DNA from: a virus
Lineage: Duplodnaviria > Caudoviricetes
Reading direction: 5' to 3' (one strand)
Length of the DNA stretch: 55,088 nt
Virus record (IMG/VR): IMGVR_UViG_3300013137_000002
Location: 1 to 55,088 of that record
This document shows positions 25,644-43,710 of this stretch, in pieces. The stretch's first letter is position 1. Every line of letters starts with the position of its first letter. The position numbers were made by a program, and so were the translations under genes. The notes beneath the pieces were generated by a model. That model worked only from the letters and a program-made list of their open reading frames with translations, made no database searches and had not been told where the DNA came from.

Positions 25644-26471
25644 ATGGGAAAACTTACTACATATCCTGCAGATACAAGATTCACTGCTGGTGATATCCTT
25701 ATTAAGGATGGAGCTGGTGGTACAAAAAAAATCTTAGCCTCAGATGCAGCAATCGAATTTGCTGGTTTGGTTTCGGCGATCAACCATAGAAATATCTACA
25801 GAGGTAAAAATTTAGGTACTGCGATTACTGCGGCGCAGCAAACGGCAATACAAACCGGAACGTTTGATGATCTTTTTATTGGTGATTATTGGACATTAAA
25901 CGGTCATGTTTATGAGATTGCTGACATGGATTATTGGTACAACTGTGGAGACACAGCGTTTACAAAGCATCATCTTGTAGTGGTGCCAAGAAACAAAATG
26001 TATGATGCCACAATGAACGCTACAAACATTACGGATGGTGGATACGTCGGATCTCTTATGTATACTGCGAATTTAAATACCGCAAAAACACAAATTACAA
26101 CAGATTTTGGCGCGCTTCTTCTCTCACACAGACAATACTTTACAAATGCAGTTACAGCTGGCGTTCCTTCTGGAGGAGCATGGTTCGATTCCACAGTCGA
26201 CCTTATGAATGAAGTAATGGTTTATGGATCGCATTTCTTTGCTCCGGCAGGAGATGGTGTGTTAATCCCAACCAGATATACAATCGATAATTCACAATTG
26301 GCGTTATTCAGACTGAATCCAAGAGCATACAAAAACAGAGAATATATGTGGCTTAGAGACGTCGTGTCTGCGGCTTATTTCGCTCGTGTGTTCTACTATG
26401 GCAATGCGGACTGCGCCAACGCGTCGTACTCTATTGGGGTTCGTCCGGCATTCGCGGTTGGGTTAGTATAA
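25644..26471 (+). CDS. DGR target 1: putative receptor-binding protein with C-terminal CLec-like variable region
   Basis: HRNIYRGKNLG...GTFDDLFIGDYW...WLRDVVSAAYFARV...GVRPAF; its 3' end matches the TR. Confidence 0.9.
   Translation: MGKLTTYPADTRFTAGDILIKDGAGGTKKILASDAAIEFAGLVSAINHRNIYRGKNLGTAITAAQQTAIQTGTFDDLFIGDYWTLNGHVYEIADMDYWYNCGDTAFTKHHLVVVPRNKMYDATMNATNITDGGYVGSLMYTANLNTAKTQITTDFGALLLSHRQYFTNAVTAGVPSGGAWFDSTVDLMNEVMVYGSHFFAPAGDGVLIPTRYTIDNSQLALFRLNPRAYKNREYMWLRDVVSAAYFARVFYYGNADCANASYSIGVRPAFAVGLV
26367..26448 (+). repeat. DGR variable repeat VR1
   Basis: 82-bp match to TR 27500-27581 with 14 mismatches, all at TR adenines. Confidence 0.97.
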
Positions 26472-26475: not shown

Positions 26476-26490
26476 GGGGCCTTGTGCCCC
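26476..26490 (+). promoter_or_regulatory. DGR target-recognition hairpin after VR1
   Basis: GGGGC-CTTGT-GCCCC. Confidence 0.75.
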
Positions 26491-26857: not shown

Positions 26858-26998
26858 ATGGAACATAGCAATAATTATACTAAAGTAAAGTCTTATTATG
26901 ACATGAAACTGTGGAATGAGACTAGAGTTCGAAATGCGGTTATAATGAATTGGATTACGGAAGCCGAATTTGAAGAGATTACTGGTACTGCTTATTAA
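26858..26998 (+). CDS. XkdX-family small protein (46 aa; not in ORF track)
   Basis: MEHSNNYTKVKSYYDMKLWNETRVRNAVIMNWITEAEFEEITGTAY; GGAGG RBS. Confidence 0.8.
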   Translation: MEHSNNYTKVKSYYDMKLWNETRVRNAVIMNWITEAEFEEITGTAY

Positions 26999-27489
26999 TG
27001 AGCGTTCTTGTAAGTGATCGTAAAGAGTCAAAATTTGAGGCTATAACGTATTCCATGGAGTTATATTTTATGCTCGTTGAACTCATGCAAAGAAACTTTG
27101 GTGTTAGAGACTTAAATAATCTTGCACGTATTCGTTATGCATTTGGTAAAGACGATAAAGAGGATTTTACTAAGTATTTATATTTAATGCAAAATTCTAA
27201 GATTCGTATTAATCAAATAGCATCGGTGCTTACAAGTAATGTTCGAGCAGCTAATACGCTTTATCCAACTTCTTTGCATGAGTATGAGAAGCGAAGAGAT
27301 TACCAGAATGACGCAATAACAAATTGTGAGCAACTCATTAAAGAGTTACAACAGATAGTAGAACTCTTTGAAGTTGATATCAACATCTACGGTAAGTACA
27401 TAAAAGCTATTGACCGAGAAATTGGTTTAATAAAGAAATGGCGTCAAAAAGATAATAAAATCAAAGTATATTTACAGGGTAACGTCTAA
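26998..27489 (+). CDS. avd: DGR accessory variability determinant (Avd-like four-helix bundle)
   Basis: Helical 163 aa (VRAANTLYP...RRDYQNDAI...EIGLIKKWR), directly upstream of TR and RT. Confidence 0.8.
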   Translation: MSVLVSDRKESKFEAITYSMELYFMLVELMQRNFGVRDLNNLARIRYAFGKDDKEDFTKYLYLMQNSKIRINQIASVLTSNVRAANTLYPTSLHEYEKRRDYQNDAITNCEQLIKELQQIVELFEVDINIYGKYIKAIDREIGLIKKWRQKDNKIKVYLQGNV

Positions 27490-27499
27490 ATCTGCGCTG

Positions 27500-27581
27500 T
27501 CTGCGGCTAATTTCGCTAATGTGAACAACAATGGCAATACGAACTACAACAACGCGTCGAACTCTAATGGGGTTCGTCCGG
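27500..27581 (+). ncRNA. DGR template repeat (TR)
   Basis: Intergenic between avd and RT, rich in AAC/AAT triplets (24 adenines), aligns to two VRs; downstream hairpins at 27583-27605 and 27613-27634. Confidence 0.97.
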
Positions 27582-27691: not shown

Positions 27692-28882
27692 ATGACTTAT
27701 GAGGAAATTGTTTGCGACGCCAATAACTTGTATATGGCCTATAAGGCTTCTGTAAAAGGAAGTAAATGGAAAGAAACGACTCAAAAGTTTATGATGAATT
27801 TCTTGAGGTACATATTCTCCATACAAGAGGATCTTATTACAAGAAACTTACAAAATGGTAAAACTGATGAGTTCTCACTTTCAGAAAGAGGTCGAATTAG
27901 GCCTATTACAAGTCTTCAAACTAAAGATAGAATTATTCGTCATGTACTATGTGACGAGGTCTTGTTACCTGAGGTTAGGAAACATATTATATATGATAAT
28001 GGAGCCTCGATAAAAGGACGAGGTATATCTCATTCAAGAAAACGTTTTGAAGTACATTTACATAAGTATTACAAGATGTATGGTAATGAAGGTTATATTT
28101 TGTTTGGTGATTTTAGCAAGTTCTATGATAATATAATTCATGAGATTGCTAAGAAAGAGCTACTTAGATTATTTGACGATGATGAATTCCTTGATTGGCT
28201 ATTTACTCTTATATTTAATGATTTTAGGATTGATGTGTCCTATATGTCTGATAAAGAGTATGAGAACTGTATGACCGACATATTTAATAAGTTAGAATAT
28301 AGGCTAATACCTAAAGAACTTTTAACCGGAAATAAATGGATGGACAAATCCGTTAATATTGGAGACCAATTAAGTCAAATTATCGGTATATATTATCCAT
28401 ATCGAATAGACAACTATGTGAAATACGTAAGAAGTCAAAAATTTTACGGACGTTATATGGATGATTGGTACATTATGGGCCCAAACAAGAAGGAATTACA
28501 AGACTTATTGGATAATATTCGAGTAATAGCGAATGAATTGGGTATACATATCAATGAGAAAAAGACTCATATAGTCAAGATAAGTAGCACTTACAAATAC
28601 CTTCAAGTGAAGTATACTCTTACTAAAGATGGAAAAGTAATTAAAAGAATCAATCCAACTCGTGTTACTGCGATGCGTAGAAAACTTAAGAAGTTAGCAA
28701 ATAAAGTCGATATTAGTGATATTTGTTACGAAAATGTCGAAAATATGTTTAGAGGTTGGATGGGAAGTTTCTATAAACTTTTATCTACGCAACAAAGAAA
28801 AAGTCTTATACAACTTTACGAAAAGTTATTCAATAAAAATATTAAGGTTGCTAATAAGAAGTTAATCATATTTAATATGTAA
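27692..28882 (+). CDS. DGR reverse transcriptase
   Basis: DRIIRH, GDFSKFYDNI, IGDQLSQ (GxxxSQ) and catalytic YGRYMDDW; 396 aa; adjacent to TR and avd. Confidence 0.96.
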   Translation: MTYEEIVCDANNLYMAYKASVKGSKWKETTQKFMMNFLRYIFSIQEDLITRNLQNGKTDEFSLSERGRIRPITSLQTKDRIIRHVLCDEVLLPEVRKHIIYDNGASIKGRGISHSRKRFEVHLHKYYKMYGNEGYILFGDFSKFYDNIIHEIAKKELLRLFDDDEFLDWLFTLIFNDFRIDVSYMSDKEYENCMTDIFNKLEYRLIPKELLTGNKWMDKSVNIGDQLSQIIGIYYPYRIDNYVKYVRSQKFYGRYMDDWYIMGPNKKELQDLLDNIRVIANELGIHINEKKTHIVKISSTYKYLQVKYTLTKDGKVIKRINPTRVTAMRRKLKKLANKVDISDICYENVENMFRGWMGSFYKLLSTQQRKSLIQLYEKLFNKNIKVANKKLIIFNM

Positions 28883-30670: not shown

Positions 30671-30753
30671 TACAAAGCACTTAATTTATTTCTTTTATAT
30701 TTTCGCATGTATAACATGGTATTTAATGAAGATATTCTTAAAAGGAGGATTAA

Positions 30754-30858: not shown

Positions 30859-30929
30859 GAGGAGGGCTTAGGCTCTCTTTTTCTCTTTTCGCGAGAGTAA
30901 CATACTCTTTAATGAAAGGAGAAGAAGGT

Positions 30930-31058
30930 ATGTGGGTCATATCATGGTACGGAGGAATAGAATCATATTCAACTGCAGAAGAAGCACGTTTCGTGTATTG
31001 GTTGCTGCGTTTAAATGGTTACGAGGCCAATATCGTATACAGGCGTACATACTTATGA
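30930..31058 (+). CDS. 42-aa early protein
   Basis: MWVISWYGGIESYSTAEEARFVYWLLRLNGYEANIVYRRTYL; follows promoter 30889 and RBS. Confidence 0.65.
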   Translation: MWVISWYGGIESYSTAEEARFVYWLLRLNGYEANIVYRRTYL

Positions 31059-31166
31059 TTATTCAATTAAATACATATGATGAAGTTGAGGTTTTAGCCT
31101 CTTCTTTTATTCTCTTTTCGCAAGCATTACATGTTATATAATGAATAAAAACGAAAGGAGGATGTT

Positions 31167-31484
31167 ATGATTAAGATAGGCGTAGGAGTAAGACTTGTTT
31201 GCGCATCGGTTTTAGGTTTTATTGGTGGTGTATTCACAATGACAAAACATCGTGAACAAGAAACACAAAAAGCGAAAGGAGAATTGATCAAAGTATTCAA
31301 GGAATTACAGAGGACCAGGGAACTTTTAGAATCTAAAGACAAAGAGATTTCAACAAAAATCGATGAAGCTTTAGAGAGTGAGAGAGAACAGACGGTCGAT
31401 AATCTGTTAAAATTCCAGAAGAAGATCAAAAATCTTGAATCGCAGATAGAAAAGAACGAAAAGAAAGACGATACAGCACCATAA
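31167..31484 (+). CDS. Membrane-anchored coiled-coil early protein
   Basis: N-terminal TM, K/E-rich tail; has its own promoter and terminator. Confidence 0.75.
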   Translation: MIKIGVGVRLVCASVLGFIGGVFTMTKHREQETQKAKGELIKVFKELQRTRELLESKDKEISTKIDEALESEREQTVDNLLKFQKKIKNLESQIEKNEKKDDTAP

Positions 31485-31609
31485 AACAAGAAATAGAATG
31501 TGTAAATAACTAATTTGAGTTTATTTTGAGAGTGAATAGCTCTTTTCTTTTATTTCGCGATTATAACATATCCTATAGTGAAATATAATAATTTGAAGGG
31601 AGAGATTAT

Positions 31610-31879
31610 GTGAGCACTATGGGAAAGAAGTCAAGAGATTTCGTAGAAGATCATGGAACAGAATTAATAATCAGTGGATTTATAATTGCTTTCGGAGCAA
31701 TTTTTAAAGTTGCACACATTTATCATAAGAATAAGTGTGCAGACTGGGGATTGCGAGGATTAGTGATGGGATTTCATGGAGCTATTAATTGGTTTGATGA
31801 GGAATTTACGGAATTAAACTTGAACGAACTCTATAATGAATGGGCAAGAGCTCATCCAGAAGAAATACTATATATTTAA
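31610..31879 (+). CDS. Small membrane protein
   Basis: TM segment LIISGFIIAFGAIF; has its own promoter and terminator. Confidence 0.7.
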   Translation: MSTMGKKSRDFVEDHGTELIISGFIIAFGAIFKVAHIYHKNKCADWGLRGLVMGFHGAINWFDEEFTELNLNELYNEWARAHPEEILYI

Positions 31880-31958
31880 CATAAGATTAAAGAGGATATA
31901 ATCCTCTTGTTTTCGCGTAGAAAACTCACCCTTTAATGAAACTATATTTGAGAGGAGT

Positions 31959-32150
31959 ATGATGTATATGAAAACATCAATTAGTGATATGATTATATCC
32001 TACCTTGTAAAAGGTGGAGTTTTATTGGAAACAAAAGGGGATTTTGAAACGGAAATCACGGTCCCATTTACAAACAATGAAGGAAAGGAAAAACAGGTAG
32101 GTATAAAGATTAAATGCAGAGATTTATCAATACGCACAATCAAAGAGTAA
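31959..32150 (+). CDS. Small early hypothetical protein
   Basis: GAGGAG RBS; promoter 31913; hairpin agagcttaggctct downstream. Confidence 0.7.
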   Translation: MMYMKTSISDMIISYLVKGGVLLETKGDFETEITVPFTNNEGKEKQVGIKIKCRDLSIRTIKE

Positions 32151-32194
32151 TAAGAAGAGCTTAGGCTCTTTCTTTTTGAAAGGAGATTATATTT

Positions 32195-32389
32195 ATGGCT
32201 GATAAAATAAAGTGTGTGAAATGTGGTACTGAACTTAAATGGGGAGGCTTTGCTCATAATCAGAATACTTGTTGGTCATGTTTCAAAGATATTATTCTTA
32301 AGACTTTAGAAAATTTGCATGGCGAAGAAAGAGAAGCTGTGGTCTGGATGATGAAGATAGTTGCTGAGAAGTACGGTGAAGAATGGTGA
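32195..32389 (+). CDS. Small zinc-finger protein
   Basis: CVKC...CWSC. Confidence 0.7.
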   Translation: MADKIKCVKCGTELKWGGFAHNQNTCWSCFKDIILKTLENLHGEEREAVVWMMKIVAEKYGEEW

Positions 32390-32450
32390 ATTCGCGTGGA
32401 AAACTCGTCCTCTAATGAATAACTAATAAAAAATTTAGGAGGATTTTATA

Positions 32451-32678
32451 ATGAAAAAGGATAATGATCTTGTAACATTAGCAGCGATTGTTATATTAGT
32501 ACCAGTGGTAATAGGAATTGGTATTAGTGTGATAAACCTGGGAATTATGGGGATCAATGGAATTAAACAGGCAAGATTCAACAAAAAGATGGAAAAAGGA
32601 ATAAAAGATGGAAGCATCGTTGTGATTGACGGACAGTACTATGAAGTACAAAAGGGAGAAACCGTTGAGGAGGCATGA
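32451..32678 (+). CDS. Small membrane protein
   Basis: Long hydrophobic N-terminus; promoter 32392. Confidence 0.75.
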   Translation: MKKDNDLVTLAAIVILVPVVIGIGISVINLGIMGINGIKQARFNKKMEKGIKDGSIVVIDGQYYEVQKGETVEEA

Positions 32679-32744
32679 GCTTCTTCTTTTTTCGCGACCA
32701 TTACAAAGACTCTAATAGAAATCTATTTTGAAAGGAGTAAAATT

Positions 32745-32900
32745 ATGTTTACAACAAGTGATAAGGTAGTATTAGGAATCTGTGGAGTAATAACAATAGC
32801 AGGTATCTTAATGATACGTTCAGGCTTAAAAGGACTTAAAGCACTTCAGGAAAGAGAAGAAATCTATAAAAATAAAGAAACAGAGATTGAAGCTGAATAA
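32745..32900 (+). CDS. 51-aa membrane protein (not in ORF track)
   Basis: MFTTSDKVVLGICGVITIAGILMIRSGLKGLKALQEREEIYKNKETEIEAE; AAAGGAG RBS; promoter 32692. Confidence 0.75.
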   Translation: MFTTSDKVVLGICGVITIAGILMIRSGLKGLKALQEREEIYKNKETEIEAE

Positions 32901-32967
32901 GCTTCTTTCTTTTCGCATAAATAACTATGCCTTTAATGAAACTAATAAATGAAAGGAAGAGAATAAA

Positions 32968-33225
32968 ATGAATATTTTAGAAAAGAGTAATTTTATCAGT
33001 CAGGTGTTTATGGGTGGAGCAAAGGCACAATTGAAACAGGAATGGACTTGGGCAGCTGCGGCAGCTATCGGATTAACTCAAGGTTTGAAATACAAAGGAA
33101 GTATTAGAACTGGATTATCCGGTGGTGTGGCGGTAGTCACGGTTCTTGCTGCGGCCTATGGCATTTACTACATCGCAGCACATTGGGACAAGATTAAAGA
33201 GGCTTTAAAAGCAAAAGAGGAGTAA
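32968..33225 (+). CDS. Small membrane protein
   Basis: Hydrophobic segments; promoter 32913; terminator at 33216-33240. Confidence 0.75.
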   Translation: MNILEKSNFISQVFMGGAKAQLKQEWTWAAAAAIGLTQGLKYKGSIRTGLSGGVAVVTVLAAAYGIYYIAAHWDKIKEALKAKEE

Positions 33226-33292
33226 CATCCTCTTCCTTTTCGCAGCTATTACATAGACTATAATGATAAGAAAAAATTAAAGGAGAATTATT

Positions 33293-33388
33293 ATGATAAA
33301 TAGTTTAAATTGCTTATTAGCACAAATATCATTATGGATATCTAGTTCTAGCATAGCAAAGGTACTTATATTAATAATAACAACTTAA
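33293..33388 (+). CDS. 31-aa hydrophobic peptide (not in ORF track)
   Basis: MINSLNCLLAQISLWISSSSIAKVLILIITT; AAAGGAG RBS; sits between promoter 33240 and a hairpin. Confidence 0.5.
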   Translation: MINSLNCLLAQISLWISSSSIAKVLILIITT

Positions 33389-33455
33389 AAACAAAAGATA
33401 AGAACTTAATAGGTTCTTATTCTTTTACCCTCGCGAAAATTACATAGAGTATAAT

Positions 33456-33555
33456 GAAGAGAAAACGACGTAGTGATACGAATGTAGGTACTTGAGAGAA
33501 GGTCCCCGCGTCGTTTGGTAATAAGAAGCAGTTCGACACTCGCTGACATCTCTTT
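33456..33555 (+). ncRNA. Putative structured ncRNA A
   Basis: Starts at the promoter's GAA. AAGAGA/TCTCTT closing stem, AAACGACG/CGTCGTTT inner stem, GTTCGA T-loop-like element, T-rich tail, no RBS-led ORF. Confidence 0.55.
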
Positions 33556-33667
33556 ATATTTTTGTCTCGAGTAGAAAGGAAAAGGCCATGTGAATTTATC
33601 ATGTCGCTTCGTACTATCTCGCTAGAATTACATTTTAGTATAAAATTTTTGGAAAGGAGGCTTGGTA

Positions 33668-34129
33668 ATGATAGTTAAGAATCTAATTGAAAATGTGATT
33701 TCCAAGGATAAGTCAAAGGAGGAACTATGTTATTTAGCCTTCGTTGATAGTCTAACGAAAACATATAATCGTAACATGTTAGAGGAGTTTCGTAAGGAAT
33801 TTGACTCTATGGATATTTTTGTTACGATAATTGACATAGATAATCTCAAAATGATTAATGACACAAAAGGTCATGAAGAAGGCGACATATTCATCAAAAG
33901 CTTTGCAGAAGAAATTAAGAAATATTCAGAATGGGTATTTAGACTTGGTGGTGATGAGTTTCTTGTTCTTAACAAATCTCATATCACTTTTAATGTACTT
34001 GGTATATCATATGGAACTATATTTAAGCTGTCAAATATGTCTTTAAATGAGGCAATGCGTATGGCTGATTTCTTAATGTACAAAAACAAAAGGGAAAGGA
34101 GTATTTCTAATGAAAAAAGAGATACTTGA
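33668..34129 (+). CDS. Stand-alone GGDEF diguanylate cyclase
   Basis: DSLTKTYNR, IDIDNLKMINDTKGHEEGD, RLGGDEF, ADFLMYKNK. Confidence 0.92.
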   Translation: MIVKNLIENVISKDKSKEELCYLAFVDSLTKTYNRNMLEEFRKEFDSMDIFVTIIDIDNLKMINDTKGHEEGDIFIKSFAEEIKKYSEWVFRLGGDEFLVLNKSHITFNVLGISYGTIFKLSNMSLNEAMRMADFLMYKNKRERSISNEKRDT

Positions 34130-34235
34130 TAAATTTGTTACGATTGCAGTATTGATATTTGGTGTAATTATTATACTATCTATTGCGGCTTGTGTTGTGG
34201 CATTAGCAATTAGATTCATATTTTGGTTATTCTAA
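34110..34235 (+). CDS. 41-aa membrane peptide (not in ORF track)
   Basis: MKKEILDKFVTIAVLIFGVIIILSIAACVVALAIRFIFWLF; AAAGGAG RBS. Confidence 0.7.
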   Translation: MKKEILDKFVTIAVLIFGVIIILSIAACVVALAIRFIFWLF

Positions 34236-34251
34236 GAAAGGAGGAAGTTAA

Positions 34252-35517
34252 ATGATTACTGAATTCACCAAGGAAGCACGTATGGCTGATTTAATTGATA
34301 TTCTAAATGACGTTGCACGTAAGTATTATACGCCTAATAATTATGACGACGAGTCGCCAATAAGTGATGCTCAGTACGACAGATATTTAAGCGAGTTAAT
34401 ACATCTTGAGGCTGAAACGGGTATAAGATTAGAAGGCTCTCCAACAATGAAAGTTGGATTTACAGAACCAGAAGAAGGAAAGATTAAGCATTACTCACCA
34501 ATTCTTTCACTTAAAGATACAAAAAATATTGATGAGCTGTTACGTTTTCTTGGTGAGAAGGAAGGACTCTTATCCTGGAAGCTTGATGGGGTAAGTATTG
34601 TTTTATATTACTCATTTGGTACTCTACAGCAAGCTGTTAGTCGAGGAGACGGACATTATGGTAAAGATATTACTAAAAACGTTGTGATGATGCGTCATGT
34701 CCCTATGACTATTCCGATTAAAAATAACGTCATTGTCCGCGGAGAAGGATGCATGTCTCTTAAAGACTTCGAACAGATTAAAAAGACAAGAGAAGGAGAG
34801 AAGTATAGTAATCCACGTAACATGACAAGCGGGCTTATTAATGCTACAAGGACAACGAATGTTTTGTTACGACATATGAACTTCATAGCCCATTCGGTTA
34901 TCTTACTCGAAGGGCACGGACGTGATATCTCAACAAGACACAAACAACTTGGACATCTTAAGACTCTTGGATTTAGAATTGTACCACATACAAAAGTGCT
35001 TAACTTCGAACTTAATGCTGAGATTGATAAGTACACTAGAGAAGTTGAGAATTTTGAGTTCCCAGTTGATGGTCTTGTGTTAACACTGAATGATATTCAC
35101 TATGGGGATTCATTAGGTGCCACAGCAAAGTTTCCTAAGCACAGTATGGCGTTCAAATGGCCCGATGAGAAAGCGACAACGACAGTAACAGGAATGAAAT
35201 GGAGTGTAAGTACGACTGGATTAATAACGCCAGTTGTCTTATTTACACCTGTTTGGCTTGAGGGAACAGAAGTTAAGCAAGCAAATCTCCATACCTTAAA
35301 GATATTTGAGGGGTTGGTTATAGGCGTAGGTGATACAATCGAGATATTTAAGGCCAACAAAATTATTCCTGAGGTATCGGAGAATTTAACCCGAAGTGGT
35401 ACTGAGGAAATTCCAAGGACTTGTCCTGTATGTGGTTCACCAACACATATTATCGTAACAGACAAGACACGTAAATTATATTGTTATCCTTGTGGTGGAA
35501 AAGAAGACTTTAAGTAG
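34252..35517 (+). CDS. ligA: NAD-dependent DNA ligase, C-terminally truncated
   Basis: Domain Ia (YY...SPISDAQYD), KLDG, SRGDG..GKDIT, VRGE, NPRN, DGLV, AFKW, OB fold, CPVC..CxxC; no HhH or BRCT. Confidence 0.92.
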   Translation: MITEFTKEARMADLIDILNDVARKYYTPNNYDDESPISDAQYDRYLSELIHLEAETGIRLEGSPTMKVGFTEPEEGKIKHYSPILSLKDTKNIDELLRFLGEKEGLLSWKLDGVSIVLYYSFGTLQQAVSRGDGHYGKDITKNVVMMRHVPMTIPIKNNVIVRGEGCMSLKDFEQIKKTREGEKYSNPRNMTSGLINATRTTNVLLRHMNFIAHSVILLEGHGRDISTRHKQLGHLKTLGFRIVPHTKVLNFELNAEIDKYTREVENFEFPVDGLVLTLNDIHYGDSLGATAKFPKHSMAFKWPDEKATTTVTGMKWSVSTTGLITPVVLFTPVWLEGTEVKQANLHTLKIFEGLVIGVGDTIEIFKANKIIPEVSENLTRSGTEEIPRTCPVCGSPTHIIVTDKTRKLYCYPCGGKEDFK

Positions 35518-35543
35518 GTCGCAGAAATTACACAGAGTTTAAT

Positions 35544-35628
35544 GAAGAGATGTAGACTTAATAGGTCGAGCACTAATTAAAAAGATTAGTGACATAACGA
35601 TGCGTGCGTTATGGTAATACATCTCTTC
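35544..35628 (+). ncRNA. Putative cloverleaf ncRNA B
   Basis: Perfect 11-bp closing stem GAAGAGATGTA/TACATCTCTTC enclosing three hairpins; begins at the promoter's GAA and ends in a T-tract. Confidence 0.7.
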
Positions 35629-35662
35629 TTTATATTTTTAAAAACGAAAGGAGAAAGATTGT

Positions 35663-36508
35663 ATGAACGGAAGAGGTCTCACAGAAATAACAAAAAACCT
35701 CGGGGGAATAATTTCTAAAAATAGTCCTACTATTCTAACTGGAGTAGCAGTGGCTGGACTCGTAACAACAACGATAATGGGAATTAGAGCAACCCCCAAA
35801 GCACTTTCGATCATCGACGACTTTGTATGGAGTAAATATGAGGAGGAAGTCGATAATCCGGAAGAAATGTCATTCGCCGAATGGCTTGGCGTAGACACTG
35901 ATGGATATTCTTGGAGGGATAAGGCTAATTACTTATCTAAGAGAGAAACCATTAAACTTACATGGAAGACGTATTTACCAACAATTGCCGTTGGAGCGGT
36001 TACAATCGCTTGTATCATTGGTGCAAATCATATTTCTTTAAGGCGTAATGCTGCCCTGGCTAGTATCTATGGCCTTACAGAAGCAGCATTCAAGGAATAT
36101 CAGACAAAAGTTGTTGAGACTCTTGGTAAGAATAAGGAACTCAAGATACGAGATGAGATTTCGGCAGATCGTGTTAAGAGAAATCCTCCCGGTATGAATG
36201 AGGTTATTCTAACAGGTAGAGGACCAGTGTTATGTTTTGACAGTCTAAGTGGAAGATATTTCAGAAGTGACATCGAACAGATTCGCAGAGTTGTCAATGA
36301 GTTAAATCGTAATATGCTCAGTGATATGTTCCTGACACTCAATGAGTTATATTATGGTCTTGGATTAGCTGGGATAGCTCTTGGGGACCAGATGGGCTGG
36401 GATATTGATAAAGGAATGGTTGAGATAAGTTTCAGTACTCAACTCACAGAAGAAGGGGAACCTTGTTTAGTGCTTAATTATAGCATCGAACCAAAATATA
36501 TAAAATAA
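35663..36508 (+). CDS. DUF6353-like phage protein, paralog 1
   Basis: NSPTILTGVAVAG...ATPKA...RRNAALASIY...LNELYYGLG..GW. Confidence 0.75.
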   Translation: MNGRGLTEITKNLGGIISKNSPTILTGVAVAGLVTTTIMGIRATPKALSIIDDFVWSKYEEEVDNPEEMSFAEWLGVDTDGYSWRDKANYLSKRETIKLTWKTYLPTIAVGAVTIACIIGANHISLRRNAALASIYGLTEAAFKEYQTKVVETLGKNKELKIRDEISADRVKRNPPGMNEVILTGRGPVLCFDSLSGRYFRSDIEQIRRVVNELNRNMLSDMFLTLNELYYGLGLAGIALGDQMGWDIDKGMVEISFSTQLTEEGEPCLVLNYSIEPKYIK

Positions 36509-36531
36509 TCTTTTGAAAGGAGATTATCACT

Positions 36532-36708
36532 ATGAGAAAAATACTGAGGTCTATTGCTAAGGCTAATTTGAAGAGGGCCGAGTACACAAGAACTAATAAG
36601 AAGGGTTCGGATGGAAAGAGCTTCTTTTCAAAACATTGGAGAGAATGGGCTGCTAAGAAGATTAGAATACCGAAGAAGTATAAGACACCTAAGAAGCGCT
36701 CTGCATAA
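36532..36708 (+). CDS. 58-aa highly basic protein (not in ORF track)
   Basis: MRKILRSIAKANLKR...FFSKHWREW...KKRSA; TTGAAAGGAG RBS. Confidence 0.7.
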   Translation: MRKILRSIAKANLKRAEYTRTNKKGSDGKSFFSKHWREWAAKKIRIPKKYKTPKKRSA

Positions 36709-36768
36709 GGGCGTCTTCTATTTATATATTTAACCTACTAAAATATTAAATTGTAAAGGAGAATTACC

Positions 36769-37320
36769 ATGAAAGTATTAAGAAAAAGAGAATTGGAAGT
36801 TAAGAACGTTAGAGTTGGTGACCAAATTGTCATTCAGTTGACTGGATTTGGAGAATTTACAGCGACTGCACAGAAAATTACTGAAAAGGGAACGCTGTTT
36901 TTGTTCGATGATTGTGTTACGGAGCGGCCTATGAACGAGAAAAACACCAACGAAGGTGGTTATAAGAAATCAGATCTTTGTAAGTGGATTAACACTGTGT
37001 TATTGAAGGCGTTCCCTAAAGACATGATAAAAAGAATTAGCGACCTCAGTATTCCTACATACGGTCAGATGTTCGGCCATGATGATTGGTATAACCGTGT
37101 AATGGAGCCTGATAATGACGAGCAACTTCCTCTTATGAAAAAGAGAAAGAATCGCATTGCTGATTTCAATGATACCTACGAATGGTACTGGATGCAAAAC
37201 GCAACTAAAAAAGAAGTATCTGCGGCTCATTTCGCTCGTGTGGCCAACTATGGCGATACGAGCTGCAACGGCGCGTCGTACTCGATTGGGGTTCGTCCGG
37301 CATTCGTGTTGGTTAATTAA
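36769..37320 (+). CDS. DGR target 2: stand-alone CLec-like (DUF6273-like) protein
   Basis: NTNEGGYKKSDLCKWIN...WYWMQNA...SAAHFARV...GVRPAF; its 3' end matches the TR. Confidence 0.9.
   Translation: MKVLRKRELEVKNVRVGDQIVIQLTGFGEFTATAQKITEKGTLFLFDDCVTERPMNEKNTNEGGYKKSDLCKWINTVLLKAFPKDMIKRISDLSIPTYGQMFGHDDWYNRVMEPDNDEQLPLMKKRKNRIADFNDTYEWYWMQNATKKEVSAAHFARVANYGDTSCNGASYSIGVRPAFVLVN
37219..37300 (+). repeat. DGR variable repeat VR2 (remote)
   Basis: 82-bp match to TR with 13 mismatches at TR adenines plus one synonymous T>G. Confidence 0.93.
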
Positions 37321-37324
37321 ATCT

Positions 37325-37341
37325 CCGCCCCTTGTGGGCGG
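37325..37341 (+). promoter_or_regulatory. DGR target-recognition hairpin after VR2
   Basis: CCGCCC-CTTGT-GGGCGG; same loop as the VR1 hairpin. Confidence 0.75.
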
Positions 37342-37378
37342 CTACATAAACTTAAAAATTGAAAGGAGATTCATCACT

Positions 37379-38896
37379 ATGCCAAATAAACATGCTGTAA
37401 AGATTATTGCGCTAGATTTCGACGGAACGCTTGTTCAGAACAAATATCCTGAAGTAGGCGAACCCATTATGAAAAATGTCAAGAAAATCAAAGAGGAAAT
37501 CGCCAAAGGTGCCAGGGTTATTCTCTGGACAAATCGCGTTGACGAATATTTACAGGCGGCTGTCGATTTCTGCAATGATCAAGGTATTCGCCTGGAAGCT
37601 GTTAACGAGAATTTACCGGAGGTAATTGCTGAGTTTGGTGGCAATCCAAGAAAGATATCCGCCAATGAGTACTGGGACGACAGAGCTGTAAATATGTCTG
37701 AGAAGGATATTGGCGAGTTCTCAGATGGGTATCATACGTTCAACGACCTATACAAGCAGCGGTTATATTTATCGGCAGCTTTATTTAATTCCTATAAAGG
37801 TCGAGCATGGAAATCCAGAAAGCATTCGGACGGACAGCCTTGTTTTTGTGGAGAGTACTTTATTGTCGGTATTGACACTCCTTTGGGACCATATACATAT
37901 CACTACGAGAATTGTCATTGGGATATGTTCAACTGCAAGGAACTGGATATAGCTCCTGAATGGGATGGTCACACTGATAAGGATGTACATCGGCTTGATT
38001 CCTTATGTAGAGAAGGACATTCTCCAAAGGATCCTGAAATAGCCTGTGAGTGTAAAAGACCGCAAAAGCGTAAGCTATTTTCCCAGGTAATGTACTATAT
38101 TTGTAGGTTCTTCCGACAAATAAGAAATCGTATAATGTATATTTTCAGACCGAGAACAGGTATGACAGGCTGGGCGTATAAAGAGGTTGAGTTGGCCTGT
38201 AAGAGTGAAAGGGAAGATAGTAAAACTCCCGATGGCGATTGGGATTATGGATGCGCTTGTTATGGAAGTGCCCTAAAGGCTTTCCGAAGTCTTACTAAAG
38301 ACGGTCATAGTGGAATGAGTATTGGTTTTACTCAGAATATTCTGAACCGACTTATTGATGGAAGACCGTTAACACCTATTGGTGACACATCTGATATTTG
38401 GAATGATATTTCAGACATAAGTGGTCTTAAGGGCGAGGAGGTTAACTATCAATGCAAGCGTATGAGCGCTTTGTTCAAGTATGTATATGCGGACGGTAGT
38501 GTGAAATATAAGAACATTGATTCACATTACTGCATCAACATCCACAATCAAAGCACATATCATAGTGGTCTTGTGCAGAGAATTATGGACGAGATGTATC
38601 CGATTACAATGCCTTATATGCCCGGAGAACCTATCAAGGTTTATTGTGATGATATTCTTACTGATAAGAAGAATGGTGATTTTGATACTGTTGCTGTATT
38701 CTATGCAATAAAACCTGATGGCGAGAAGGTCGAAATTAATCGCTTCTTTAAAGAATCCAAATCCGATACCGGCTGGGATGAAATAACGAAAGAGGAATAT
38801 TCTGAACGGAAAGTTATTGCGGAGGACCTTGTAACTCGGATTAAGAAAGAGGTGGATGAGGCCTTTAAGGTACCTCCACATTTAATGACTGAATAA
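37379..38896 (+). CDS. Multidomain protein: HAD-family hydrolase + WDGH-motif domain + C-terminal phage domain
   Basis: IIALDFDGTL...ILWTNR...RKISANEYWDDR; DGYHTFNDLY...TYHY...PEWDGHT; DGHSGMS...PLTPI. Start moved to the ATG at 37379 after a GAAAGGAG RBS. Confidence 0.75.
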   Translation: MPNKHAVKIIALDFDGTLVQNKYPEVGEPIMKNVKKIKEEIAKGARVILWTNRVDEYLQAAVDFCNDQGIRLEAVNENLPEVIAEFGGNPRKISANEYWDDRAVNMSEKDIGEFSDGYHTFNDLYKQRLYLSAALFNSYKGRAWKSRKHSDGQPCFCGEYFIVGIDTPLGPYTYHYENCHWDMFNCKELDIAPEWDGHTDKDVHRLDSLCREGHSPKDPEIACECKRPQKRKLFSQVMYYICRFFRQIRNRIMYIFRPRTGMTGWAYKEVELACKSEREDSKTPDGDWDYGCACYGSALKAFRSLTKDGHSGMSIGFTQNILNRLIDGRPLTPIGDTSDIWNDISDISGLKGEEVNYQCKRMSALFKYVYADGSVKYKNIDSHYCINIHNQSTYHSGLVQRIMDEMYPITMPYMPGEPIKVYCDDILTDKKNGDFDTVAVFYAIKPDGEKVEINRFFKESKSDTGWDEITKEEYSERKVIAEDLVTRIKKEVDEAFKVPPHLMTE

Positions 38897-38963
38897 GGTC
38901 GCAGGAAATACACAGGGTATAATGAAGATAATACTTAATTAAAATATTGAGAGGAGAATCATC

Positions 38964-39188
38964 ATGGAAAAGAAAAGAACATTGGGTGAATTCATAAAGG
39001 AAAATAAAGGTAAGATCATCAAAGGAACAATCATCGTAGTAGGTGTGGTAGCAGGAATAGTAGTAATAAGACTGTTAACAAACCGTTGCGAGGAACAGTT
39101 ACTTGGAGCGGTCGAGAACTTGAATCCGGAAGAATTAACGGCATTGGAGGGTTTCAAAGCCATTGGCGAGACTGCAGCAAATATATGA
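38964..39188 (+). CDS. Small membrane protein
   Basis: TM IIVVGVVAGIVVI; promoter 38899; terminator at 39210. Confidence 0.75.
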   Translation: MEKKRTLGEFIKENKGKIIKGTIIVVGVVAGIVVIRLLTNRCEEQLLGAVENLNPEELTALEGFKAIGETAANI

Positions 39189-39209
39189 GCAGTATAAAAT
39201 CAGAAAGCG

Positions 39210-39250
39210 AGATGCTTAAGGAAAACTTAGGCATCTTTGCTTTTATTTTT
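39210..39250 (+). terminator. Intrinsic terminator
   Basis: AGATGCTTAAG/CTTAGGCATCT stem followed by a T-tract. Confidence 0.7.
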
Positions 39251-39269
39251 ATTGGGAGGTTACAAACTT

Positions 39270-39881
39270 ATGAATAAATTAGATAGAAACAAAAGAAAAT
39301 GGAAGGTTAAACCACGCTTTTATGTTATTTGTACATTGATAGTGGCGATTATTACATCTCTGGTTATATTTAACCTGTCAAATGGTGTTGAAAACGAAGA
39401 GACATTTAATGACACAACTGTATTATCTGTAATAGAAACTATAAAAGATATTCCAATTCCGACCACGCCAGCTCCAATAAAAGAGATTAAACTTCATTAT
39501 GGGTTTACGGACGAAGATGTTTACCTTCTTGCACAGGTATTAAGTGGTGGAGGAAATGTTGATGGCGATGGGGAATATGATATAGATTTTCAGGAAGAAA
39601 TAAATTACTATGAAGTAGGTAAAGTTCTTAATGTAATAATGAATCGTGTACGCTCAGAGGACTTTCCGGATACTGTTAAGGACGTTGTATTACAAAAAGG
39701 ACAATTCAGTGTTATTCCACGTAATCTTACTAGGGAACCATCCGATATTGCACTACAAACAGTGCGTGAATGGTGTACGGCCTATGATAATTACATAAAT
39801 CTCGTACAAGTTGTACCTACAAATCATTTATTTTTTACCGGTAATGGCACTATAAATATAACAAGAGCAAAATATAAATGA
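39270..39881 (+). CDS. Membrane-anchored SleB/Hydrolase_2-like cell-wall hydrolase
   Basis: N-terminal TM; VIMNRVRSEDFPDTVKDVVLQKGQFS. Confidence 0.8.
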   Translation: MNKLDRNKRKWKVKPRFYVICTLIVAIITSLVIFNLSNGVENEETFNDTTVLSVIETIKDIPIPTTPAPIKEIKLHYGFTDEDVYLLAQVLSGGGNVDGDGEYDIDFQEEINYYEVGKVLNVIMNRVRSEDFPDTVKDVVLQKGQFSVIPRNLTREPSDIALQTVREWCTAYDNYINLVQVVPTNHLFFTGNGTINITRAKYK

Positions 39882-39937
39882 ATCTCGCTGGAATTACATA
39901 GTCTATAATGAAACTATATTTTGAAAGGAGAATCATT

Positions 39938-40231
39938 ATGGAAAAATTTAAAACAGCATTAACGGTAGTTAAGATGGTTGGAGGATTAGTAATTTCAATA
40001 GGAGTTGGCGCGGTTGCGGCGAACTTGATAAAAGCGACAACCCCCGAAGATATAAAAAAGGTGACAAAAATATGTATCGGAGTGGGAAGTTTCTTTGTAG
40101 CAGGAATAGCAGCATCAGCAGCTAGCAATAAATTTGAAGGGACTATGGATTCAGTCATAAACACAATAGTGAAGTTTACGGAAGGAGATAATGACAATGA
40201 GACACCAGAAGTAGTAATAGAGGAGACTTAA
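39938..40231 (+). CDS. Small membrane protein
   Basis: Two hydrophobic segments; promoter 39885; hairpin gagacttaaataagtctc at the end. Confidence 0.75.
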   Translation: MEKFKTALTVVKMVGGLVISIGVGAVAANLIKATTPEDIKKVTKICIGVGSFFVAGIAASAASNKFEGTMDSVINTIVKFTEGDNDNETPEVVIEET

Positions 40232-40282
40232 ATAAGTCTCTTTCTTTTCACCTTATATTTTAAATTTGAAAGGGGAGTCACT

Positions 40283-40402
40283 ATGTATTATTCGAATTGG
40301 GAATATCATCCACTTTATGGTTGTTATTCAAGATTTGTCTTTAAAGAAACGAAAGATGGATATAAAATGGTAGAAAGAGAATATAGATATTTAAATACTT
40401 AA
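40283..40402 (+). CDS. 39-aa aromatic-rich peptide (not in ORF track)
   Basis: MYYSNWEYHPLYGCYSRFVFKETKDGYKMVEREYRYLNT; GGGGAG RBS. Confidence 0.55.
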   Translation: MYYSNWEYHPLYGCYSRFVFKETKDGYKMVEREYRYLNT

Positions 40403-40425
40403 GAATTCGAAAGGAGAAAACCACT

Positions 40426-40587
40426 ATGGATGCAATAATCACTCGTAACTGTAAGGAAAAGATTTGTAAGAAGTCCTTCACAATCTCCGCGGAGGAGGCG
40501 AAGTGGCTAAAAGATAAAGGCTTGGAACTCTATAAGAGATGTCCCGATTGTCGGAAGAGAAGGAGAGAAGAAGCTAATGGAAAATAA
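40426..40587 (+). CDS. 53-aa zinc-ribbon protein (not in ORF track)
   Basis: CKEKIC.KSFTISAEEAKWLKDKGL...KRCPDCRKRR. Confidence 0.75.
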   Translation: MDAIITRNCKEKICKKSFTISAEEAKWLKDKGLELYKRCPDCRKRRREEANGK

Positions 40588-41260
40588 CGATAATAAGGAA
40601 CAATTGAAAAATGTATTTCCCTCTAACTCAAAAATAAAGAGGGATCCTCAACAGCCGCCTAAAGTTGAAGATAGAAAACTTGAGAAGGTTGTTACTGGTA
40701 CGGTAAAAAAACAAAAGAGGGGTTTCGGTAAAAAGCTTGCTGAGACCTTTCTTGAAGATAACACAAGGAGTGTTGGTAGTTATATTTTCCACGACGTTCT
40801 TATTCCCGCAGCTAAATCTATGATTTGTGATATGGTTGGATGGGGAGGCTTTGCCGAGATATTGCTGTTTGGTGATAAACGCGGTGGAGCAAGAGCTCGT
40901 GGTGGCAGATCAGACGGACGTTCATTCACAAGTTACAATTCATGTTATCGCTCAACGGATCGTGACCGGGATACAAGAGACCGTGACAGACGTGATATTT
41001 CAAGAACAAGTAGGGCTCGTCATGATTTTGATGAGATTATTCTTGAAACTCGTGGTGAAGCAGAAGAAGTATTATCTCATCTCGTTGACTTAACTATCGA
41101 TTACAATCAAGCAACCGTTGCTGATTTGTATGACTTGGTTGGAATCAGCAGCAACTTCACCGATAATAAGTATGGCTGGACAGATTTACGTAATGCCAGT
41201 GTGACTAGGGTAAGAGACGGATATTTACTGAATTTGCCTCGAACTCAGATACTGGATTAG
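40577..41260 (+). CDS. Conserved phage hypothetical protein
   Basis: DVLIPAAK...EAEEVL...ATVADLYDLVG...TDNKYGWTDL. Confidence 0.8.
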   Translation: MENNDNKEQLKNVFPSNSKIKRDPQQPPKVEDRKLEKVVTGTVKKQKRGFGKKLAETFLEDNTRSVGSYIFHDVLIPAAKSMICDMVGWGGFAEILLFGDKRGGARARGGRSDGRSFTSYNSCYRSTDRDRDTRDRDRRDISRTSRARHDFDEIILETRGEAEEVLSHLVDLTIDYNQATVADLYDLVGISSNFTDNKYGWTDLRNASVTRVRDGYLLNLPRTQILD

Positions 41261-41270
41261 GAGGAATAAA

Positions 41271-41936
41271 ATGAATATCTTTGATTTATTAGCTCAAGGT
41301 ATTGAGGCTCAGATGTCTAATGAAGAGAACTTTGTTCAGGATGCAATAACCTTTCGGTTCCGCAAAGGTGATAGATATTATCAGCGTGTTATTCCTCGTA
41401 AAGAAATTATCCTATTCAATGGGGGAGCAGTGAGCTCCTCTTTGTTTGAGGATATGATTTGCAGGGAGGTAATGGAATATTTTAAGAATCCAAAAGGTTC
41501 TGAGAAAACAGAAAATACTTTGCAGCTTGGTGATTGGGTTATTTGCTCTGAAAGCGGAGTTGTCGGACGCATCATAAATTTCTATACACCAACTGCTTGT
41601 GAGGAGCAGATAATGGTAAAAACACGTAATGGAAGACGTTATCATGCACCAAAAAGATTGTGGAAACATTATCAATTTGGCGTTGAAGCAACGACCGTAA
41701 TTACGGATGAGTTATCTACTACAATGGGTGGTATTAAAGCTTCAGAATATGATGGGGATATGCTTAATGAGCATGGCAAATATGCCATTAAGTTTGCTCA
41801 GAATCACGGTATAAGTATCAATGAAGCGCTTGAACATCCTACTGTTAAAGCCCATGCAGAGGTTATAAATTCCTTGAATGAGCAGGTTCTTAAGGAGATA
41901 TATCCGAAGCAGAACTTTCTAAAAAATGGAGGATAA
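41271..41936 (+). CDS. Hypothetical protein with central SH3-like segment
   Basis: LQLGDWVIC..SGVVGRI; AGGAGG RBS. Confidence 0.65.
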   Translation: MNIFDLLAQGIEAQMSNEENFVQDAITFRFRKGDRYYQRVIPRKEIILFNGGAVSSSLFEDMICREVMEYFKNPKGSEKTENTLQLGDWVICSESGVVGRIINFYTPTACEEQIMVKTRNGRRYHAPKRLWKHYQFGVEATTVITDELSTTMGGIKASEYDGDMLNEHGKYAIKFAQNHGISINEALEHPTVKAHAEVINSLNEQVLKEIYPKQNFLKNGG

Positions 41937-41970
41937 ACTTTAATCTGTTTTAAAATAAGGAGGGTCAAAT

Positions 41971-42237
41971 ATGTCTAAACTGTTTTGGCATTGTGAAAAA
42001 TGTGGTGGAAACTTCGACCATGGAGAATCTTGTGATTGCAAAAAAGAAGAGTCAAAATTATTGGTAAGTGAGACTCTTATCTTAGGTGTCGATATCTCTG
42101 GAGGTAAAGATATTTCCTGTATACAAATAGTGAGGGTAATAGGAAATACTCGTAAGGTTATTAACACCATATATGGAGAAGAAGCTGAGAAAACCTATGA
42201 CATCCTTATGAATAGAGGTGGAGTAGTTAAGGTTTAG
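41971..42237 (+). CDS. Small Cys-rich hypothetical protein
   Basis: CEKCGGNFDHGESCDC. Confidence 0.7.
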   Translation: MSKLFWHCEKCGGNFDHGESCDCKKEESKLLVSETLILGVDISGGKDISCIQIVRVIGNTRKVINTIYGEEAEKTYDILMNRGGVVKV

Positions 42238-42253
42238 GAAGGAGAATGATTTA

Positions 42254-42706
42254 ATGATAAAACTTGTTAAAGATCCAAATGCCGATAGTCGTGCGGTTAA
42301 TGGAAAAATTCCATTAATGAAGTTACAGCTAGCTACGGCTAATCATATTGAACATGTGTCAGAAGGGCTTGGATATTTTGCCGACTTACTTAAAGCTGCT
42401 GGAATAAATCATGACCATACAAAGTCAGAAAATATGGAGGAATTCCATAAAGCACTTGAGACTGGAATGGTTAAAAAGAGCCGGTGGTATAAGATGCATA
42501 TTTCAGAAGAGCGTCATCATCTGATAGCGAAGGCTCCGGACGATGTTAACCTTATTGATGTGTTTGAGCATCTTGTCGATTGTGTGATGGCGGGTACAGC
42601 TAGGTCTGGAGAGATATTTGACATTGATTTGTCGAATGAGCTCTTGCAGAAGGCACATAAGAATACGGTCGAGATGTTGAAGAAGCAGATTAAGGTGGAG
42701 GGATAA
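42254..42706 (+). CDS. HD-like metal-dependent hydrolase
   Basis: HIEHV...HDHTK...ERHH...EHLVDC. Confidence 0.6.
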   Translation: MIKLVKDPNADSRAVNGKIPLMKLQLATANHIEHVSEGLGYFADLLKAAGINHDHTKSENMEEFHKALETGMVKKSRWYKMHISEERHHLIAKAPDDVNLIDVFEHLVDCVMAGTARSGEIFDIDLSNELLQKAHKNTVEMLKKQIKVEG

Positions 42707-42707
42707 T

Positions 42708-43034
42708 ATGGACATCTTATATTTATGTGATCGTAAAGCATGCGAACAATGTAATCCGGAATGCCAACATACAAAAGATATTTATCATGCTATAAATTTC
42801 GAAAAATATGAGGGCGGTGGTTATTGGGAAAAAGAGGCAAAACCATTACTTGTTCTCAAGACGGATCGTCTTCTTAAAAAGGACATTGTTGATCTAATTC
42901 GAAATGATATTAAGAGACAAATGGAAGAAGGTTTAGTCTTGGTTGATGGCTCTATAACTGAGATTAAATTTAAAAATGATGTATATGGCGTTATGCTTAT
43001 TTGTCAGGCGGAAAAAATAAAAGAAGAACCATAA
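42708..43034 (+). CDS. Hypothetical protein, Cys-rich N-terminus
   Basis: YLCDRKACEQCNPECQHT. Confidence 0.65.
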   Translation: MDILYLCDRKACEQCNPECQHTKDIYHAINFEKYEGGGYWEKEAKPLLVLKTDRLLKKDIVDLIRNDIKRQMEEGLVLVDGSITEIKFKNDVYGVMLICQAEKIKEEP

Positions 43035-43075
43035 ACTCGTAATAAAAACATCTCCTTTAATGAAAGGAGAATAAA

Positions 43076-43546: not shown

Positions 43547-43583
43547 AGTTATATTCGCGAAAACTACAAGGACTATAATGAAG

Positions 43584-43654: not shown

Positions 43655-43710
43655 TTTCTTTTTTCAATGTAACTATAAACCAAATATTAAATTGTAAAGG
43701 AGAAATTACC

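Follow-up and report, generated by a model that had tools for sequence, protein, structure and literature searches.

Diversity-generating retroelements (DGRs) of phages are understood almost wholly as tropism switches, and the question raised by the virus record IMGVR_UViG_3300013137_000002 is whether its DGR also rewrites a second protein, encoded far from the tail genes, and what such a protein would do for the phage. The window, that is, the whole 55,088-bp stretch of DNA analysed, is a complete virus record with direct terminal repeats (DTRs), and its annotated genes all lie on the + strand. An open reading frame (ORF) at 36769–37320 (+), preceded by an AAGGAG ribosome-binding site 7 nt upstream, encodes a 183-aa protein in which a variable region, VR2, corresponds to the single template repeat (TR) of the genome. 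An adenine-specific match between VR and TR, a reverse transcriptase (RT) with an adjacent TR and Avd gene, and a VR at the 3′ end of the gene followed by a GC-rich end and a hairpin were all found. The ORF is a real second target of the phage's single DGR, and the window presents it as a clean, active target in a non-structural block.

A 92-nt VR2 probe was compared with both strands of the window. Besides itself, it has two strong ungapped matches, the VR of the tail-adjacent target (VR1) at 26367–26458 with 77/92 identities and the TR at 27500–27591 with 71/92, and the next-best match in the window reaches 43/92. In register, VR2 differs from the TR at 13 TR adenines and at two other positions, namely a boundary base at 37218 and a T>G change at 37284 that is synonymous (TCT>TCG, Ser), and VR1 differs from the TR at 14 adenine sites and at no other site. 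Given 24 adenines among the 84 TR positions, the probability that at least 13 of 15 mismatches fall on adenines is 4.8e-6. The TR begins 9 nt past the Avd stop codon, ends 111 nt ahead of the RT start and lies 9.6 kb from VR2. The IGDQLSQ motif of the RT is of the kind that marks DGR RTs.

Both VRs close with CCGGCATTCG, which we take to play the role of the initiation of mutagenic homing (IMH) sequence of the Bordetella phage DGR. About 20 nt past each VR stands a hairpin, and the two hairpins have the CTTGT loop in common; their stems differ in sequence, but each is complementary. This loop is kept, with compensatory stems, in VR1 and in VR2 of 17 of the 18 relatives from IMG/VR. Since the + strand carries no T-run here, and the loop and its position are common to VR1, the VR2 hairpin is not an ordinary terminator; a T-run is present on the minus strand only, and the idea that the hairpin ends transcription of the target gene as an intrinsic terminator was rejected. 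A sequence-only reading of the locus had already described 13 adenine-site changes with one synonymous T>G, an end shared with VR1, a separate hairpin, and a position among non-structural genes remote from the retroelement; it had inferred that one RT and TR hypermutate both a virion adhesin and a probably cytoplasmic binder. Sequence comparison and folding bear the description out, with the boundary mismatch at 37218 to be added, and one RT and TR do serve both a tail-adjacent target (VR1) and this remote stand-alone one. Immediately 3′ of the TR, two further hairpins (27583–27634) stand in a sequence kept in the relatives L005, L021 and L024, and would fit a TR RNA whose 3′ part is structured.

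VR2 is currently active, as seen from co-existing alleles in one sample, hypervariability across the family and VR-only divergence of near-identical relatives. Logan contigs, rather than raw reads, of four lake-water runs were mapped on 25600–37500, the coverage of runs X3 and X4 being patchy. In run X2, a 34.3-kb contig ends at 37227 (depth 28.1) and a 20.6-kb contig starts at 37286 (depth 26.9). The gap between them is bridged by two 118-nt unitigs, one with the window's allele (depth 12.5) and one with an alternative allele (depth 5.11) that carries 16 differences. Fifteen of these fall on TR adenines; at the single T>G position, the sixteenth goes back to the T of the TR. The X2 flanks carry no differences, and therefore both alleles reside on otherwise identical genomes. 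The sequence-only reading had named an invariant VR2 beside a varying VR1 as a pattern that would refute its proposal, and the contigs show the opposite. No VR1 difference is among those listed in the four runs; because contigs drop rare variants, this does not speak for an inactive VR1.

On the scale of the family, an alignment of 80 homologues with 65–81% identity gives a column entropy above 2.9 bits at VR residues 154, 157, 159, 160, 161, 163, 165, 167, 168, 171 and 173. These residues correspond to the TR's eleven AAY codons, and the sole other residue above 2.9 bits is residue 59. In 17 of the 18 IMG/VR relatives, VR2 aligns in register with this window's TR, with 12–17 adenine-site and 0–6 other mismatches; the 3′ end of the eighteenth, L009, is rearranged. 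Two pairs of relatives (L006/L007 and L015/L021) are identical at 50/50 positions per 50-nt segment across the gene and drop to 38–45 in the VR only. Meanwhile, in L024 (G005), L013 and L014 an in-frame TAA at codon 229 of the RT replaces the Q of the IGDQLSQ-type motif (IGxxxSQ-type). VR2 is identical in all five contigs of this broken-RT lineage (L010, L011, L013, L014 and L022), perhaps one clone, which would fit a frozen target.

The only Pfam match of the target protein is DUF6273 (PF19789; E 2.6e-11; 44.1 bits, above the gathering threshold of 23.5), with residues 43–181 aligned to profile positions 4–170 of 172. The protein is a member of phrog_21980 (E 3.7e-76), a large family that also includes orf43 of Roseburia phage Shimadzu, and among 701 candidate proteins 657 match at E ≤ 1e-3. 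A megablast search of the target locus against the INPHARED phages gave no match. The AlphaFold2 (AF2) model, built from 73 diverse sequences, reaches a predicted local distance difference test (pLDDT) score of 97.2 and a predicted template modelling (pTM) score of 0.91; it replaced an initial run with 80 close homologues, in which the pLDDT was 58.3 and fell below 50 over residues 97–172. All 183 residues form one compact domain in the model, in which VR2 occupies the last four strands and residues 1–42 are strands packed in the same body. As the sequence-only reading had supposed, no transmembrane (TM) or signal-like segment is seen, because the highest 19-residue Kyte–Doolittle mean is 0.79, and the single-domain AF2 model contains no anchoring module and none of the N-terminal oligomerising or fibre-attaching domains of the Mtd type. 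In a Foldseek search of the PDB, the single match at E ≤ 1e-3 is a Thomasclavelia IgA peptidase that carries DUF6273 as its N-terminal domain, and C-type-lectin domains are matched weakly. Against BFVD, 24 matches at E ≤ 1e-3 are mainly phage DUF6273 proteins, and some bear the label tail-collar fibre or receptor-binding protein. DUF6273 recurs in the VR1 protein, where it occupies residues 122–273 (hhalign 96.9%) after about 120 additional N-terminal residues.

Longer members of phrog_21980 have varied N-terminal extensions, none with a Pfam family. The 58-aa ORF at 36532–36708 was considered as a missing phrog_21980 N-terminus and rejected, since it has no family match. Five family fusions (P0130, P0154, P0128, P0126 and P0129) carry a phrog_4079 C-terminal domain, a two-TM anchor at the N-terminus or, by read-through of the hairpin, a coiled coil at the C-terminus. 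In P0130 and P0154, the phrog_4079 C-terminal domain precedes DUF6273, which hints at a possible functional link with the target. A complex prediction for the target and the C-terminal domain of g40577 (phrog_4079; window 40577–41260) scored 0.01, which is no evidence either way, and sequence searches of g40577 against the Atlas and the PDB gave no functional lead.

Table 1. Features of the window, with positions in the 55,088-bp stretch
Feature	Position	Strand	Basis
Remote DGR target gene, stand-alone DUF6273 (putatively C-type-lectin-like) protein, 183 aa	36769..37320	+	ORF, Pfam, phrog, AF2
VR2, codons about 150–178	37217..37300	+	TR match, alternative allele in run X2
Common 3′ end of VR1 and VR2, CCGGCATTCG; TR ends CCGGATTCTC instead	37297..37306	+	Sequence comparison
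GC hairpin 3′ of VR2, CCGCCC-CTTGT-GGGCGG, 6-bp stem	37325..37341	+	Fold
Adjacent target, 275 aa, directly after tail genes; VR1 26365–26448	25644..26471	+	TR match, hhalign to DUF6273
VR1 hairpin, GGGGC-CTTGT-GCCCC	26476..26490	+	Fold
Avd accessory protein	26998..27489	+	phrog_3206 'Avd protein of DGR', E 2.5e-10
TR, sole one in genome; 84 nt, 24 A, 11 AAY codons in VR2 frame	27498..27581	+	Sequence comparison
DGR RT	27692..28882	+	Pfam RVT_1 E 2.5e-15; phrog_1423 E 5.2e-57; IGDQLSQ motif
RNA-polymerase-like protein, 820 aa	157..2619	+	End-to-end phrog_4291 match, E = 0
Terminase, portal, protease/capsid, major tail, tape measure, Dit and Tal-like genes	5.2–25.6 kb	+	
Holin and lysin-like gene; many small genes after	29.2–30.7 kb	+	
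Nearest upstream copy of promoter-like motif; heads unit DUF6353, 58-aa ORF, target, WDGH/Tad3	35518..35546	+	Motif scan
DUF6353 proteins, two hydrophobic segments each	35663–36508 and 43711–44664	+	
WDGH/Tad3 fusion, 505 aa	37379..38896	+	WDGH PF25311 E 6e-38; Tad3 PF25185 E 1.6e-28

The target gene comes after the lysis genes in a setting of ligase, DUF6353 and accessory genes, apart from both the tail genes and the DGR cassette; its neighbours are non-structural. Past the small genes, the order is GGDEF-like fragment, NAD-dependent ligase, DUF6353, target and WDGH/Tad3 gene, followed by a cell-wall hydrolase, the second DUF6353, a primase-polymerase, an annealing protein and a helicase. A promoter-like motif, TTCGC-N6-TACA-N5-TWTAATGAA, has 16 matches in the window, all on the + strand and all in 29581–43582, against 0.18 expected by chance. 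This block is the accessory region between the lysis and replication genes, and the structural and replication regions are without the motif. A scan of 16 relatives found a copy about 610–650 nt 5′ of the target in 7. Such confinement to the block suggests that it is transcribed as a class of its own, possibly by the polymerase that the phage itself encodes. The order 3′ of the target is the same in all 18 IMG/VR relatives: first a DUF6353 gene, next a phrog_4079 gene. DUF6353 paralogues, two in the window and three in the relatives L005–L022, bracket the DGR target, and no mention of this family was found in the literature searched.

The distribution of the DGR among relatives is uneven. The RT was found in G003, G005 (broken) and G007, and TR and VR1 lie upstream of the remote VR by 5 kb in L005 and by 8 kb in L021. 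In the case of G001 (L006, L025–L027), a complete 53-kb relative (100%, DTR), no RT, Avd, TR copy or VR1 target was found, and the genes from Dit through the VR1 target, the DGR and lysis have no detectable homologue. Its target is kept at 77% identity with an intact hairpin, its VR shows 12 adenine-site and 3 other mismatches to this window's TR, and the gene is an orphan target with a diversified-looking VR. G002 (91% complete) likewise keeps the gene, and no RT or TR was found in it. Among GTDB genomes, from Christensenellaceae, Oscillospiraceae, Acutalibacteraceae and Lachnoclostridium hosts, an RT is missing from the examined flanks of 17 of 18 loci, and a whole-genome search returned an RT homologue in five of five, at ≥63% identity in four. 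Four GTDB pairs of a remote VR and the TR beside the RT give adenine-site/other mismatches of 18/0, 20/0, 18/0 and 17/1; in G010 and G011, whose contigs could be paired by number, the RT is about 41 and 47 kb away. By these comparisons, the small DUF6273 proteins are the remote target, partnering a tail-adjacent one, in several Clostridia phage and prophage lineages, namely Shimadzu, Fontainebleau and four Christensenellaceae/Oscillospiraceae prophages, with Toutatis as a distant analogue.

The Mtd protein of Bordetella phage BPP-1 is a DGR target with a C-lectin fold, a C-terminal VR, an IMH and a hairpin. The window target resembles it in the C-terminal VR, the IMH-like end and the hairpin. 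However, N-terminal beta-prism and beta-sandwich domains tie Mtd to the tail fibre and its gene stands beside the DGR, whereas the window target has neither feature. A closer counterpart is found in Roseburia phage Shimadzu. According to its preprint, this phage has two VRs, of which the second lies in orf43, a gene 'of unknown function', and both are mutated in five evolved isolates (bioRxiv 10.1101/575076). The orf43 product is homologous to the window target (hhalign 99.4%, E 1.7e-21, 164 columns), with 24% identity in the profile alignment. In Shimadzu (LR596903), the TR spans 19597–19705, the RT-adjacent VR near 18950 has 15 adenine-site and 1 other mismatch, and the remote VR in orf43 (33481–33589), 13.8 kb from the TR, has 14 and 2. 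Like the window target, orf43 is small and stand-alone, and it lies between a methyltransferase and Erf, near the single-stranded DNA-binding protein (SSB). The two phages differ in type and source: Shimadzu is a myovirus prophage of the gut, and the window, which comes from lake-water metagenomes, is a siphovirus-type genome with DTRs. The terms 'mass spectrometry' and 'proteom' have no occurrence in the preprint text.

In Toutatisvirus, the second VR gene is described, in the part of the iLund4u preprint seen, as a core gene with DUF6273 located 17,480 nt from the TR; targets are kept where the DGR is missing, and its authors favour a receptor-binding protein (bioRxiv 10.1101/2024.10.15.618418). 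For FP_Toutatis (NC_047915), which is a phage of Faecalibacterium, gp24 is among the early genes, and its VR (11935–12035) compared with the TR (49079–49179) shows 13 adenine-site and 1 other mismatch. The small DUF6273 protein gp24 is only distantly related to the window target (hhalign 46.5%, E 2e-4), and its VR is not at the extreme C-terminus. In the Acutalibacter phage Fontainebleau (ON453893), an inducible prophage of a cultured host, WAK78934 is 41% identical to the window target. Its gene is flanked by DNA polymerase I and a helicase; the remote VR in it (9801–9882) is 25 kb away from the TR (35106–35187) and has 14 adenine-site and 0 other mismatches, and the adjacent VR (34391–34472) follows the tail genes with 15 and 2. 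The Fontainebleau literature examined contains no occurrence of DGR terms, and therefore this instance seems undescribed there. Pfam searches on neighbouring genes found no gene family common to the target neighbourhoods of the window, Fontainebleau and Toutatis. Wherever annotated (Shimadzu, Fontainebleau, the window and, as a distant analogue, Toutatis), the remote gene sits among early or replication genes.

The tentaclin-phage paper and a Faecalibacterium prophage paper, as far as their text was available, contain pairs of one large and one small DUF6273 target (PMC10743442 for the former). The target2 proteins nd4 and nd12 of the tentaclin phages, for which the same text assumes an Mtd-like role (PMC10743442), are longer than the window target, at 234 and 294 aa. 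The accessible portion of the survey of Wu et al. lists 45 of 372 DGRs with non-adjacent targets and mentions 'many examples' of phage DGRs with one adjacent and one non-adjacent target, nearly all within 50 kb (PMC5758913, 2017); the genome module in which the non-adjacent target lies is not a subject of that survey. Roux et al. describe their own survey as unable to detect remote targets. A survey of relatives for the two-target layout, which the sequence-only reading had put forward, finds it in Fontainebleau, Shimadzu, Toutatis and four Clostridia prophages. The novelty implied by that reading was overstated: because the Shimadzu orf43 homologue, the Toutatisvirus DUF6273 target and the survey of Wu et al. 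are already in print, the layout is not new, and the window adds one more case of a layout already described. Neither the recurrence of this small-protein family as remote target across several Clostridia lineages, among early or replication genes wherever annotated, nor a proposal of an intracellular role for a phage DGR target was found in the literature searched, outside which lie the supplementary tables (Wu S1 and Cornuault Additional file 5).

By the established DGR mechanism, reverse transcription of the TR RNA yields cDNA in which random bases stand opposite adenines. The mutated cDNA then replaces VR2, guided by the GC-rich 3′ end common to VR1 and by the downstream hairpin, and each replacement rewrites the 11 AAY codons and two other adenine-containing codons at the C-terminus of the DUF6273 domain. 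Several features favour a product outside the virion. The gene is in early/accessory or replication modules in the window, Shimadzu, Fontainebleau and Toutatis; in the window, it lies within the separate promoter-motif block; G001 retains it though the tail tip has no detectable homologue; and the predicted fold is a single compact domain with no anchoring module in the model. At about even chances, we lean towards the reading that the target is not a virion part; it would be a soluble binder of small size, produced along with the accessory/early block and acting intracellularly on a ligand that varies. Among candidate ligands is a host defence or regulatory protein, though an unlikely one in our estimate; the Pfam scan of the target, made with no dedicated anti-defence library, gave no homology to an anti-defence family, and the neighbouring WDGH/Tad3 gene provides no conserved link to one. 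Extending the idea to all small DUF6273 proteins of phrog_21980, as intracellular, DGR-evolvable 'antibody-like' binders that are produced with early or accessory genes and bind variable host proteins, for instance defence systems, or competing-phage proteins by a hypervariable beta-hairpin surface, is a tentative step that we regard as somewhat unlikely. If it were true, one template would diversify an adsorption function (tail-adjacent) and an intracellular conflict function (remote) in many Clostridia phages. An intracellular target would be the first virus case of targeted hypermutation for a purpose beyond adsorption, and a target in the virion would make this an ordinary two-adhesin DGR. 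The hosts of Shimadzu and Fontainebleau are cultured, so that the choice between a virion adhesin and an intracellular binder is directly testable.

A number of points weigh against an intracellular binder. To our knowledge, every phage DGR target of demonstrated function is a receptor binder (Mtd). One TR scaffold also serves the tail-adjacent VR1, and therefore both proteins could bind similar surface ligands. Elsewhere, DUF6273 is extracellular, as the secreted IgA peptidase's N-terminal domain and in fusions to tail-fibre-like phage proteins, and DUF6273 targets are assumed to be receptor-binding in the published texts, so far as these were accessible (bioRxiv 10.1101/2024.10.15.618418; tentaclin, PMC10743442). 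The WDGH/Tad3 gene, the strongest hint at a link with host defence, is beside the target in none of the 18 IMG/VR relatives, and its adjacency is window-specific. The evidence of activity is at contig level, and X2 may be the source sample of the genome, yet its second allele is independent information. Reports of expression, localisation or virion proteome for any family member were not found in the literature searched.

These points lead to the explanation that the target is a virion-associated or released adhesin, docking on tail or capsid and encoded outside the late operon, in which case the DGR would diversify two adsorption proteins. The putative C-lectin-like character of DUF6273, the interpretation of phage targets described to date as receptor binders, the same domain in the VR1 protein beside the tail genes, the tail-collar fibre and receptor-binding labels in BFVD and the extracellular IgA peptidase as top PDB match all speak for it; the early or replication setting of the gene in at least four lineages, its separate promoter-motif block, the modelled lack of an anchoring domain and its retention in G001 speak against it. 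We regard this adhesin as possible, on the lower side of even chances. A prophage-expressed sensor or exclusion factor, made by the lysogen and recognising competing phages or invaders with its variable surface (defence, not counter-defence), would suit relatives that are prophages in Christensenellaceae and Oscillospiraceae genomes, the conserved two-TM DUF6353 neighbours and the one relative with an N-terminal two-TM anchor; for bacteria, the accessible text of PMC10907252 speaks of a proposal of putative antigen sensors diversified by DGRs. However, the target has no effector domain, no defence-family match turned up, although none was sought, no integrase is among the annotated window genes (a subset of ORFs scanned), and the DGR sits with the late genes, so that we hold such a sensor to be improbable.

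A further reading takes VR2 as a by-stander: the VR module would have been duplicated long ago, VR2 would be rewritten only through the recognition elements it kept, and the diversity would be non-adaptive for the protein. G001 and G002 keep the gene without RT or TR, and phages keeping targets without a DGR are noted in the available part of the Toutatis preprint (bioRxiv 10.1101/2024.10.15.618418); from this it follows that the protein works in the absence of ongoing diversification. On the other hand, the remote VR, its 3′ end and the hairpin are kept down to 41% protein identity and in separate lineages, the framework residues are invariant and the variation is confined to AAY positions, which leaves a by-stander VR2 very improbable. 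Chance similarity to the TR, or an assembly artefact, has a next to negligible probability and was ruled out by 71–77/92 identities against a background of 43, by the adenine bias and by the same pattern in independent relatives.

Besides the target, the neighbourhood and the remainder of the window offer further observations. The N-terminal part of the 505-aa WDGH/Tad3 protein matches phrog_1238 (labelled phosphoheptose isomerase), and Tad3 is described, in the text available, as a Thoeris inhibitor that binds ThsB (PMC13728456). G001 has a partial WDGH/Tad3 homologue at another genome position. An identical 23-nt leader with a ribosome-binding site precedes the target (36741–36763) and the second DUF6353 gene (43682–43704). 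The 155-aa ORF at 33662–34129 contains the first half of a GGDEF diguanylate-cyclase domain only (profile positions 1–89 of 161). The family of the 157–2619 product, phrog_4291, is labelled 'RNA-dependent RNA polymerase', and the protein has a homologue at 47% identity in G001; by this match, it could be a phage-encoded single-subunit RNA polymerase. Just 3′ of the VR1 hairpin, X3 and X4 contigs part from the window: they end loosely at 26498 and 26541, and 2 bp are deleted at 26520. Meanwhile, an X2 contig (depth 17.6) links 30659 to 31857, omitting 1,197 bp, and represents a co-existing deletion variant of the accessory region.

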